A stretch of DNA of 64,000 nt from assembly GCA_965242525.1 (NCBI GenBank), contig OZ251459.1, positions 1,280,001-1,344,000 of the forward strand. Reading direction: 5' to 3'. This document shows positions 25,451-35,689 of the stretch, in pieces; the first letter of the stretch is position 1, and the number at the start of each line of letters is the position of its first letter. Made by a program: the position numbers and the translations under genes. Source of the DNA: an uncultured Candidatus Binatia bacterium. GTDB taxonomy: Bacteria > Desulfobacterota > Binatia > UBA9968 > JAJDTQ01. The notes beneath the pieces are model-generated. The model made no database searches and was not told the DNA's origin. It saw nothing but the letters and a program-made list of their open reading frames with translations.

Positions 25451-25540
25451 TGGCGGAGAGGGAGGGATTCGAACCCCCGTTACCCGTGGGTAAACCTGAT
25501 TTCGAGTCAGGCGCCTTCAACCGGACTCGGCCACCTCTCC
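25451..25540 (-). tRNA. tRNA-Ser(CGA)
   Basis: GGAGAGG acceptor, anticodon arm CCTGA-CTCGAAA-TCAGG, long variable arm, GGTTCGAATCC T-loop, encoded CCA. Confidence 0.97.
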
Positions 25541-33514: not shown

Positions 33515-34594
33515 ATGAAAGAATCGCCCCTCCAGGACCTCCACGAGCGCAACGGCGCGGTCTTCCTCCAACGGGAAGGGTGGCGCCTGCCCGCCCATTT
33601 CCGGGACCCCGCGGCGGAATACGACGCGGTGCGTTCCGGCGCGGGCTGGCTCGACTTGGCGGACCGGGCCCTGGTCTCGGTCACAGGCCCGGACGGCGCC
33701 GAGTGGCTCCAGGGCATGCTTTCCAACGACGTCAAGGCCTTGGGCACGGGCGAAGGAGCGCCGGCCGCGGTCCTGAACGTACAGGGGAAGATCCTGGCGG
33801 ACGTGCGGGTGTTCCGTACCGACGATTCCTTCCTCCTGGAACTGGACGAGCCCCTGCTGCCGGGCGTGCTCGCCCACCTGCACGGCTACCTGATCGCCGA
33901 CGAAGTGGATCTCGACGACCTCTCCCGGCGGCTCGCCCTGGTCTCGGTCCAGGGGCCCGAGGCGGAAGCCGTCCTCGCCCGCTTCCTGCCCGCGGACTCG
34001 CTGCCCGGGTCCGACCTGTCCCACCGGGAGTCGGAGTGGGCGGGCGGGCGAATCCGGGTCATCCGGGCCACGCATACGGGGGAGCCCGGCTTCGACCTCG
34101 CGGCGCCGGCGGAAGCCCTCGCGGCCCTGGCGGCGCTCCCCGCGGTCCGGGGCGTCCCGTGGATCGGGGGCCACGCCCGGGAGGTCCTGCGCATCGAGGC
34201 GGGCATCCCCCGGTACGGGGTCGATATGGACGCCGAGACGCTGCTGCTGGAGACCTGCCTCGACAACGCCGTCAGCTTCACCAAGGGATGCTATCTCGGA
34301 CAGGAAACGGTGGAGCGCATCCACTCCCGCGGCCACGTGAACCGCAAGCTGGTGGGCCTCAAGGCCGAAGGCCACTTGGCGCCCGGCCGGGACGACCCGG
34401 TGCTGCGCGACGGCCGCCCCGTGGGCCGGGTCACCAGCGCCACCGTGTCGCCCCGGCTCCAATGCCCCATCGCCCTGGGCTACGTCCACCGGGACTGCGC
34501 CGAGCCCGGAAGCGCCGTCACCATCGCGCACGGACCCCGGAAGATCGCCGCCGCGGTCCATGCGCTGCCCTTCCGACCCCCTCCCGGCCCGTAG
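33515..34594 (+). CDS. YgfZ/GcvT-family folate-binding aminomethyltransferase-like protein
   Basis: SFTKGCYLGQE signature, LRIEAGIP, GRVTS...IALGYV. Confidence 0.92.
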   Translation: MKESPLQDLHERNGAVFLQREGWRLPAHFRDPAAEYDAVRSGAGWLDLADRALVSVTGPDGAEWLQGMLSNDVKALGTGEGAPAAVLNVQGKILADVRVFRTDDSFLLELDEPLLPGVLAHLHGYLIADEVDLDDLSRRLALVSVQGPEAEAVLARFLPADSLPGSDLSHRESEWAGGRIRVIRATHTGEPGFDLAAPAEALAALAALPAVRGVPWIGGHAREVLRIEAGIPRYGVDMDAETLLLETCLDNAVSFTKGCYLGQETVERIHSRGHVNRKLVGLKAEGHLAPGRDDPVLRDGRPVGRVTSATVSPRLQCPIALGYVHRDCAEPGSAVTIAHGPRKIAAAVHALPFRPPPGP

Positions 34595-34618
34595 TCCGGC
34601 AGGCCCGGAGGCGGGACC

Positions 34619-35077
34619 CTACAGCTTGTCGAGCTCGGCCAGCAGGTCCTGGTTCTCCGGAATGCCGCTCTCGTAGAGCTTGGCGAACCGCACGGTCCCC
34701 TGCTTGTCGATGATGAAGACGGCCCTCTTGGGAAAGCCCTGGGGACGCAGGCAGTCGTACTGCTCGCACACCGCCCCGTGGGGATAGAAATCGGACAACA
34801 TGGGAAAGGTGATCCCGCCCATCTTTTCCGCAAACGCCTTGTGGGCGAAAACCGAGTCCACACTCACGCTCAGGACCTGAGCGTCTCTGGCCTCGAAGCC
34901 GGACTTGTCGGCCTCGAAGTTGCTCAGTTCCTGCTGTCAACCGCCGGTGAAGTCCAGTGGATAGAACGCCAGCACCACGTTCTTTTTGCCGGCGTAGTCA
35001 CCCAGGGAAACCTTCTCGTCCCGGGAAACCGGCAGGCTGAATTGGGGAGCCTTCTCCCCTACGTTGGGCATTGCCAT
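34619..35077 (-). CDS. Peroxiredoxin (AhpC/TSA, AhpE/BCP-like), predicted selenoprotein with UGA-Sec at 34937-34939
   Basis: One frame: MAMPNVGEKAPQFSLP...VVLAFYPLDFTGG-UGA-QQELSNF...VSVDS..AHKAF...FPMLSDF...RAVFIIDKQG; UGA sits at the Cys of PxxxTxxC; AAGGAG RBS. Confidence 0.9.
34871..34933 (-). promoter_or_regulatory. Candidate bacterial SECIS hairpin immediately 3' of the Sec UGA
   Basis: CAGGA/TCCTG, CTGAGC/GCTCAG and TTCGAGGCCG/CGGCTTCGAG stems around an ACAAGTC loop, starting 3 nt after UGA. Confidence 0.65.
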
Positions 35078-35140
35078 TGCGCGTCTCCTTTCCGCTTGCT
35101 TTCCTCGGTTCCTTTCGAACGTCCGCTCCCACGCTGTCTA

Positions 35141-35689
35141 TCACACTCCGCCGCGGCGATAAAGGCGGCGGAAGTCCTTCAGGGCCTCCACCGTGCTGGG
35201 AAAGGCGAGGTCGTCCCAGGGGATCCGGGACGGGGCGAAGGTGCCGGCCTCGGTGCTCTCGTCTCCGGCCGCAAGGGTCCCTCCCACCACGTCCGCCACA
35301 TAGACGATGATGACGTTGGGGGATCCGGGGTAGGAGTAAACGCCCAGGAGCGACCGGGTGGCCACCTCCAGGTTGCTTTCCTCCCGGGTCTCCCGGACCG
35401 CGGCTTCGGCCGTGCTTTCGCCCCTGTCCACGTAACCGCCGGGGAAGACCCACTTGCCCAGGGCCGGCTCGATGCCCCGGCGCAGCAGCACCACGCCCCG
35501 GTGGAGCATGCAAACGGCGCCGGCCACCACCTTGGGGTCCTGGTAGAATATGAACGAGCACTCCCCGCAGACCAGGCGCTCGGGCTCGTGGTCCTTGAGC
35601 ACGCGCCGCGCCAGCGGCCCGGCGCAACGGGGGCAGAAGCGGTAACCGCCGGCCCCGTGGTGGTGCGCGTGATGGTCGTGGTTCGCCAT
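35141..35689 (-). CDS. NUDIX hydrolase with N-terminal zinc ribbon
   Basis: FCPRCA...CGEC, Nudix box GGYVDRGESTAEAAVRETREESNL. Confidence 0.9.
   Translation of the reverse strand: MANHDHHAHHHGAGGYRFCPRCAGPLARRVLKDHEPERLVCGECSFIFYQDPKVVAGAVCMLHRGVVLLRRGIEPALGKWVFPGGYVDRGESTAEAAVRETREESNLEVATRSLLGVYSYPGSPNVIIVYVADVVGGTLAAGDESTEAGTFAPSRIPWDDLAFPSTVEALKDFRRLYRRGGV

Follow-up and report, generated by a model that had tools for sequence, protein, structure and literature searches.

A split reading frame and its protein

This analysis concerns a predicted selenoprotein gene in a stretch of 64,000 nucleotides (nt) from an uncultured Candidatus Binatia bacterium (contig OZ251459.1), the whole of which we call the window, and the RNA structure that follows the in-frame UGA of this gene. 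On the minus strand, at positions 34619-35077, there is a single frame of 152 codons plus a TAG stop, interrupted by one TGA. The open reading frame (ORF) listing under table 11 gives an 82-amino-acid ORF at 34619-34867 and a 46-amino-acid ORF at 34937-35077, both on the minus strand and in the same frame, and the TGA is the only thing that separates them. When this TGA is read as selenocysteine (Sec, U), a 152-residue protein containing FYPLDFTGG-U-QQEL is obtained.

A preliminary reading of the same DNA, made from the letters and an ORF list and called here the sequence-only reading, had proposed a hidden selenoprotein at this place, seeing that the ORF track reports only the last 82 residues and that a ribosome-binding site precedes a frame from 35077. 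Both points hold: the coding sequence, which matches Pfam AhpC-TSA, is complete from the ATG at 35075-35077 to the TAG at 34619-34621, and a Shine-Dalgarno-like AAGGAG, read from the sequence, lies at 35085-35090, 7 nt upstream of the ATG (these features and those that follow are all on the minus strand). The N-terminus of the full-length orthologs is MAMPNVGEKAP. The UGA, at 34937-34939, is codon 47 and occupies the peroxidatic position, that of Cys45 in AhpE of Mycobacterium tuberculosis. Together with the codons of P40 to T44 (34946-34960) it gives the spacing P40-x3-T44-x2-U47, so that the UGA does stand at the catalytic Cys of a PxxxTxxC motif, as had been read. The conserved catalytic Arg, R118, is encoded at 34724-34726 and corresponds to R116 of AhpE. 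The two Cys of AVCEQYDC, which the sequence-only reading took as the only ones of the frame and as possible resolving residues, are indeed the sole Cys of the 152-residue translation, C104 (34766-34768) and C109 (34751-34753), the two codons spanning 34751-34768; both are candidate resolving residues.

Regarding the neighbourhood, the gene order confirms that this is the last gene of a long minus-strand run, which includes scpB, an rluB-like pseudouridine synthase gene and a NUDIX hydrolase gene; a convergent plus-strand gene of the GCV_T family, with its end at 34594, faces it. A promoter and terminator scan of 34300-35400 gave no promoter-like site and two terminator-like sites, not above shuffles, and an Rfam scan of 34600-35100 returned only five chance-level matches (E 2.2-4.8, far under the gathering scores).

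The protein matches Pfam AhpC-TSA (PF00578) over profile positions 1-123 of 124 with E 1e-36 and 126 bits against a cut-off of 26. By sequence, its closest solved relatives are the M. tuberculosis AhpE proteins, which make up all of the top seven Protein Data Bank (PDB) sequences (E 1.3e-30), and the alignment places U47 on the peroxidatic Cys45 of AhpE and R118 on R116, the residue named in the title of PDB entry 4xih. An AlphaFold2 model built from a 27-row alignment (A4; residue 47 entered as C) has a predicted local distance difference test score of 95.2, and residue 47 opens helix 47-56. With Foldseek the best PDB match is AhpE 4x1u, at a template modelling (TM) score of 0.93 and 40% identity, the top AhpE matches lying between TM 0.91 and 0.93. 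Furthermore, P40, U47 (as C) and R118 are invariant in the 27-row alignment, where residue 44 is Thr or Ser. Judged by its sequence, the window protein is an AhpE-like peroxiredoxin: it has around 150 residues, it has no C-terminal extension and AhpE is its nearest solved relative.

From what the family does, Thr44 and Arg118 would share the PxxxTxxU pocket with Sec47, which would attack the hydroperoxide and turn into a selenenic acid. Either a selenenylsulfide formed with Cys109 or Cys104, or a thiol or redoxin from outside the protein, would then regenerate it. In the model C104 lies within helix 102-106 and C109 in the loop just after it. All 47 Sec orthologs have C109 and 44 of the 47 have C104, and the Cys-type homologs of the 27-row alignment have neither. 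Seven of nine Cys forms carry a second Cys six residues past the peroxidatic one (CTNEHAC), and the Sec forms have no Cys near residue 47. The resolving residue seems to have moved along with the exchange of Cys and Sec, and the conservation suggests that the Sec enzymes resolve in another way, putatively through C109 or C104.

Decoding of the UGA

The Sec machinery on which the sequence-only reading depended is all there. The genome is 98.96% complete and has a tRNA-Sec (78 bits against a cut-off of 47; called by ARAGORN as tRNA-SeC with anticodon TCA) as well as selA, selB and selD (577, 371 and 383 bits respectively, all above their cut-offs). These three genes are adjacent on the minus strand at C1:3604834-3609122, outside the window, and selD, which contains a single in-frame TGA in the motif GUAAK, is a selenoprotein gene too. 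There is also a weak match to the tRNA-Sec model inside the window, at 25455-25540 on the minus strand (C1:1305455-1305540; 35.5 bits against the cut-off of 47), which is probably an ordinary long-arm tRNA.

The TGA is conserved. Orthologs with 71-99% identity were found in 36 of 41 related genomes, and every one of the 37 matches of this kind has exactly one TGA; the remaining five genomes gave weaker matches only, of 36-46% identity. A scan of public loci, with one genome per species, returned 79 loci. Forty-eight of them read FYPLDFTGGU, and 29 read FYPLD[FW]SP[VIL]C or similar, being around 50% identical and mostly from Acidobacteriota records; in the other two the motif was not recognised, L078 being cut and L089 failing to match. 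Thus, the exchange of Cys and Sec that the sequence-only reading expected among homologs is seen at one and the same column, with Sec in the close orthologs and Cys in those of around 50% identity. Among the 47 distinct ortholog coding sequences the Sec codon is TGA in all 47.

At the level of reads, a TGC or TGT at 34937-34939 would have pointed to a Cys enzyme; these positions lie in contigs of four public runs, one from each of four studies, which show zero differences there and carry TGA, the contig of run X1 being identical across the stretch and possibly the source of the window itself. Near-identical contigs from X6 and X9 (3 and 9 differences in 501 nt) come from sponge metagenome or metagenome runs of studies other than the likely source, and none of these differences falls in the UGA or in H1 or H2, the two hairpins described below.

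In public protein sets the orthologs are mostly C-terminal fragments of 83-105 amino acids, and it is fair to call the gene hidden because this fragment is mostly all that these sets hold. There are also four JGI entries named mycoredoxin-dependent peroxiredoxin that run full-length through the TGA by translating it as Trp (FTGGW); they come from contigs of about 1 kb and are annotation artefacts.

These entries bear on two other explanations of the TGA. The first sees in it a nonsense mutation or a mistake of assembly, which would leave a pseudogene or two fragments. Gene callers do split the frame, and most of the database entries are the fragments just mentioned. However, the TGA stands at the same codon in all 47 distinct orthologs with strong conservation of the protein on either side of it, it recurs in 36 related genomes and in the contigs of four runs, it falls precisely on the catalytic residue, and it is followed by an RNA structure specific to Sec forms; furthermore, the ortholog identities, at 71-96%, rule out assembly duplicates of one source. 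We give this explanation almost no weight. The second takes residue 47 to be Trp or Gly instead of Sec, UGA being an ordinary sense codon as in codes 4 or 25, and the Trp of the four JGI entries is in line with this. Against this, the upstream NUDIX gene terminates in TGA at 35141, genes genome-wide give normal open frames under table 11, the full Sec system is present and in-frame TGAs are seen only in known selenoprotein families. In addition, a Trp at the peroxidatic position, where the homologs have Cys, would kill the enzyme. This too is extremely improbable, and on the comparative evidence error, pseudogene and reassigned UGA are all very unlikely.

We therefore have high confidence, from the comparison of the sequences, that the locus encodes one 152-residue AhpE-like peroxiredoxin, with Sec47 inserted by the SelA, SelB, SelD and tRNA-Sec of the genome itself and with a pair of conserved hairpins as the predicted signal.

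Two hairpins downstream of the UGA

The sequence-only reading had placed a long stem-loop, resembling a selenocysteine insertion sequence (SECIS), directly past the UGA. In the 78 nt that begin with the UGA this stem-loop (34871-34933) is indeed the minimum free energy (MFE) structure, with -33.8 kcal/mol and a z of -3.51, and none of 200 shuffles was as good; in a slightly wider stretch, refolded, z was -2.42 and 3 of 200 shuffles were as good. Its outer helix has its 5' arm at 34922-34933 and pairs with 34871-34882. Comparison with the orthologs favours another structure, made of two hairpins. H1 (34891-34919) has 11 base pairs (bp) here and a 7-bp core in all orthologs, its stem starts 17 nt past the UGA, and it folds with -17.2 kcal/mol (z -4.22). 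H2 (34866-34884), the candidate SelB-binding element, has an 8-bp stem and a GUC triloop whose G is 60 nt past the UGA, and folds with -10.8 kcal/mol (z -3.73). The outer helix of the long stem-loop competes with H2.

We aligned 45 distinct ortholog segments and ran RNAalifold on alignments of 93 nt and 159 nt. Two hairpins were obtained, H1 pairing columns 27-33 with 49-55 and H2 pairing columns 62-69 with 73-80. In the two together 99.7% of the 675 cells are paired and three pairs show compensatory change; the covariation score observed was reached by none of 500 shuffles, and in controls with the structure slid along the alignment only 17-44% of the cells were paired. The pair of columns 28 and 54 of H1, for instance, is CG in 19 orthologs, UA in 14 and UG in 11. 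When flanks of 30 nt upstream and 42 nt downstream were added (40 of 48 sequences), H1 and H2 were again the sole helices with compensatory change. Two other structures were set aside: the scattered 3-bp outer helices given by RNAalifold with the wide flanks, which show no compensatory change and were not counted, and a three-way junction with the nucleotides directly past the UGA as its closing region, seen only in the MFE fold of the window sequence. As to the outer helix of the long stem-loop, 83.0% of its cells are paired, three of its pairs fail to form in 16-22 of the 45 orthologs and it has no compensatory support among them. The comparison thus supports describing the supposed SECIS-like hairpin as two conserved hairpins, H1 and H2, and of the claim that it follows the UGA at once only the position of the stem-loop stands, since the SECIS-type loop, in H2, sits 60 nt away.

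The coding sequence bears marks of the same structure. Relative synonymous entropy, calculated over the 47 distinct orthologs, is 0.7-0.8 over most of the gene and dips to 0.32-0.5 at codons 43-75, with its minimum of 0.32 at codons 64-72, which is H2. Ala66 is GCT and Ser70 is AGC in all 47. H2 is nearly invariant in the orthologs and H1 is variable in sequence; the core motif of H2 occurs once in the genome.

Regarding other families, five paralogs of around 45% identity from the same order (FYPLDWTPTU) have a variable first hairpin and then ACACCCAR-GUN-YUGGGUGU, with the loop at +60. A sample of 201 Desulfobacterota genomes held 64 with a homolog at E 1e-20 or better, and from this sample plus two other genomes we examined fifteen TGA-bearing sequences. 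Ten of them have H1 and, at exactly +60, a hairpin of 8-9 bp with a GUN triloop (5 bp in L135); two (L127 and L163) have a hairpin at the +60 position with a different loop, and three (L160, L166 and L167) have no hairpin at +60. An alignment of H2 across families, with 23 regions (12 of the 45 orthologs and 11 from other families), has 97.8% of the cells paired and compensatory change in five of the eight pairs, and no shuffle of 500 scored as high.

The Cys homologs behave otherwise. Among 29 distinct ones, which have the same peptide DAQVLG[LI]SVDS, none has all eight pairs of H2 and each has between three and seven. The stretch from the UGA to H2, compared with mononucleotide shuffles, gave mean z values of -2.66 (n=11) and -2.87 (n=11) for Sec forms and +0.05 (n=28) for Cys forms. 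The comparison of sequences has therefore shown that both hairpins are conserved and specific to the Sec forms.

Finally, H2 is found in 64 of 71 distinct Sec sequences; 59 of these lack a proximal G[G/U]-loop hairpin and 5 have one. H2 is absent in 7, five of which have a proximal canonical-loop hairpin at +18 to +23 and two of which have none. Some Sec-peroxiredoxins (Sec-Prx) of the same order, Desulfobacterota and Bacillota (L116-L119, L160 and L167) have a classical proximal SECIS and no complete H2. The proximal element is a 6-7-bp stem whose loop, AGUCG, GGA or GGC, lies at +18 to +23, with an 11-nt spacer in L116-L119; L118 has seven of the eight H2 pairs and is hence counted as H2-bearing among the 71.

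The recoding signal and known systems

The bacterial SECIS consensus, according to excerpts of PMC13188914, is an apical loop of 3-9 nt on a stem of 4-16 bp, in which the first or second loop letter is G and the next one is usually G or U, together with a distance of 16-37 nt between UGA and apical loop and a fold of -7.5 kcal/mol or better. Compared with the bSECISearch model, H2 fits in loop size, stem, G followed by U with a closing pair, and energy. The H1 loop, at 28 nt, fits the spacing, but its sequence ACAAGUC lacks a G at its first two letters, which are A and C here, and across the orthologs this loop is 7-15 nt long and has no conserved letters.

Other selenoprotein genes of the genome have hairpins of the same form as H2. 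In selD there is a GUC loop on 9 bp at +33 from the UGA; a PrxQ-type Sec-Prx (L123; C1:871236-871697, plus strand; NF006960, 173 bits) has a GUU loop on 6 bp at +16; a UGSC-family gene (L124; C1:466954-467550, plus strand; 107.7 bits, under the cut-off of 125) has a GUG loop on 9 bp at +19; an OsmC-related selenoprotein candidate (L125; C1:2197920-2198405, minus strand; 178 bits) has a GUA loop on 7 bp at +20; and a rhodanese-type or 3-mercaptopyruvate-sulfurtransferase-like candidate (L126; C1:1678428-1679267, plus strand), with U at the active-site Cys, has a GUC loop on 5 bp at +27. A stem with a GUN triloop is thus common to H2 and five other selenoprotein genes, and because these five triloops lie in different reading frames they are not by-products of one codon. 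As a background, a hairpin of at least 5 bp with a GUN triloop occurs 10-40 nt past 0.87% of 83,546 TGA triplets. A second scan for such triloops, with a coding filter, left five sites, and C1:3612032 was dropped since its frame is non-coding. Formate dehydrogenase, looked for as a further Sec enzyme whose SECIS could be compared, gave eight matches in the genome, none with an in-frame stop. In selD of 30 related genomes (L017 and L191-L219) there is a 5-bp mini-hairpin, UCGGC-CCN-GCCGA, between the UGA and the GUN hairpin at +33, identical in 27 of 29 distinct sequences except for the wobble base of the loop.

We favour, with some confidence and on the comparative data, the reading that H2 binds SelB and that H1 is a spacer folded away. 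The folding of H1 would remove 29 nt and leave around 23 unpaired nt between the UGA and H2, an effective spacer that would match those of 22-24 nt in selD and in the rhodanese gene. The long stem-loop may be an alternative conformer, melted by the ribosome when the UGA reaches the A site.

The opposite assignment makes H1 the functional SECIS and gives H2 an accessory role, such as slowing the ribosome, guarding H1 from misfolding or stabilising the mRNA. The H1 stem starts at +17 here and at +11 in the paralogs and in Desulfobacterota, which is the classical spacing of E. coli according to PMC8659212. The fold of H1 is stable (z -4.22) and confined to Sec forms, some ortholog loops of H1 begin with G, L165 combines 9 bp with a GUGA loop, and the GU of the H2 loop is a by-product of a Val codon. 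Nevertheless, the H1 loop varies as described and keeps no letter, 59 of the 64 H2-bearing sequences have no proximal G[G/U]-loop hairpin, the minimum of synonymous variation is at H2 and not at H1, and it is H2 that shares the stem-plus-GUN-triloop form with five other selenoprotein genes. We consider it unlikely that H1 is the SECIS. The remainder goes to a role for both hairpins or to something else.

Several points weigh against the assignment of SelB binding to H2, or against the wider reading of the gene. H2 departs from the bSECISearch model in spacing, with 60 nt against 16-37 nt and a second conserved hairpin filling the gap, and it is H1 that occupies the usual SECIS position. In the RNA of the window's own gene the MFE fold is the long stem-loop, which excludes H2 because some nucleotides are common to both. 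The letters of the H2 loop taken alone are uninformative, because the Val codon, present in the Cys homologs too, forces the G and the U. The hairpins of the UGSC, OsmC-related and rhodanese genes came from a scan that required a GUN triloop. As to the tally, the 71 sequences are not independent, 47 of them belonging to one ortholog clade, and the 5 of 64 H2 sequences that also have a proximal hairpin, by a loose loop rule, indicate that the two solutions are not strictly exclusive. Concerning the protein, none of the NCBIfam equivalogs among the 14 matches listed reaches its cut-off, the best being PrxU (NF040737) with 77 bits against 270, and the resolving role of C109 or C104 is deduced from conservation. 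Both Se incorporation and SelB binding are predictions from comparison.

H2 would lie on the strand-forming peptide D-A-Q-V-L-S-V. With the Val codon GUN as centre, the codons of this peptide come close to pairing with one another: GAY could pair with RUN, GCU with AGC and CAR with YUG. A Cys-type ancestor would therefore have needed mostly synonymous changes to gain H2, and the Cys homologs already reach up to seven of the eight pairs; the intervening sequence would then have been selected to fold. On balance, we lean slightly towards a general statement, that AhpE-like Sec-Prx of at least two phyla (the Binatia lineage and Desulfobacterota) use a two-part SECIS, with a SelB hairpin at exactly +60, on the near-palindromic codons of the conserved strand peptide [D/N]-[A/T]-Q-V-L-[G/S]-[V/I], and a variable spacer hairpin that would bring it close enough to the ribosome.

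According to excerpts of PMC13188914 and PMC1794560, Sec-peroxiredoxins that carry PxxxTxxU form an established family of selenoproteins, backed by experiments. The gene is a further member of it, and the unexpected part is the RNA, with its SECIS-type loop far downstream: the architecture is well supported by comparison and its function is predicted. Two reviews (PMC13188914, PMC12013277) state that some bacterial SECIS elements do not fit the consensus model, and the second of them adds that tools with a spacing rule miss at least 40 (13.0%) of the known selenoprotein genes. According to PMC10945757, a SECIS grafted near helix h16 of the 16S rRNA, outside the mRNA, supports Sec insertion, so that being placed close to the mRNA entrance can count for more than distance along the chain. 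We found no description of a two-hairpin bacterial SECIS, or of one at 60 nt or otherwise remote, in the open literature, the subscription papers, including the original bSECISearch paper, being outside the search. A SECIS engineered into the 3' untranslated region reportedly works in E. coli, a report that our literature search did not return. A search of the literature also found no paper linking Binatia or Binatota with selenocysteine or a selenoprotein.

With this result the lineage gains a selenoprotein that is read correctly, from a gene whose public entries are almost only fragments or have Trp at the active site. It also supplies a conserved, covarying case in which a canonical-loop hairpin stands behind another hairpin, at 60 nt from the UGA. 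The two-part SECIS, if true, would provide a concrete case, open to experiment, of the atypical bacterial SECIS elements escaping current search models, and it would suggest a way for a Cys enzyme to gain a SECIS mostly via synonymous changes. If SelB binds H2, the spacing rule concerns space and not sequence distance, wider search models become possible, and it is easier to explain how Sec enzymes arose from Cys enzymes.

Compared with known systems, the minimal SECIS element of E. coli fdhF lies 11 nt from the UGA, according to an excerpt of PMC8659212. For PrxU, 36 of 301 genomes scored over the cut-off, 20 loci were fetched and 17 distinct Bacillota genes were examined: 15 of the 17 have a canonical SECIS with a 10-nt spacer, a stem of 6-8 bp and a GGUC or AGUU loop at +17, and only two of the 17 have a hairpin at +60 as well, whereas the window gene has no proximal loop of this type. 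The 1-Cys AhpE of M. tuberculosis (Rv2238c) is of equal length and shares the Pro, the Thr, the peroxidatic position and the Arg; it differs in having Cys instead of Sec, and Ser and Val at the positions of Cys104 and Cys109. Its reductant system, mycothiol and mycoredoxin, is named in PDB titles and in the names of the JGI entries; to our knowledge this system is not expected outside actinobacteria. Finally, while the window protein stays below the cut-off of the PrxU equivalog (NF040737; 77 bits against 270), it has in common with the Sec-Prx family (PF00578, TxxU), which includes PrxU, the AhpC/TSA domain, the PxxxTxxU motif with a peroxidatic Sec and a host that carries selABD.

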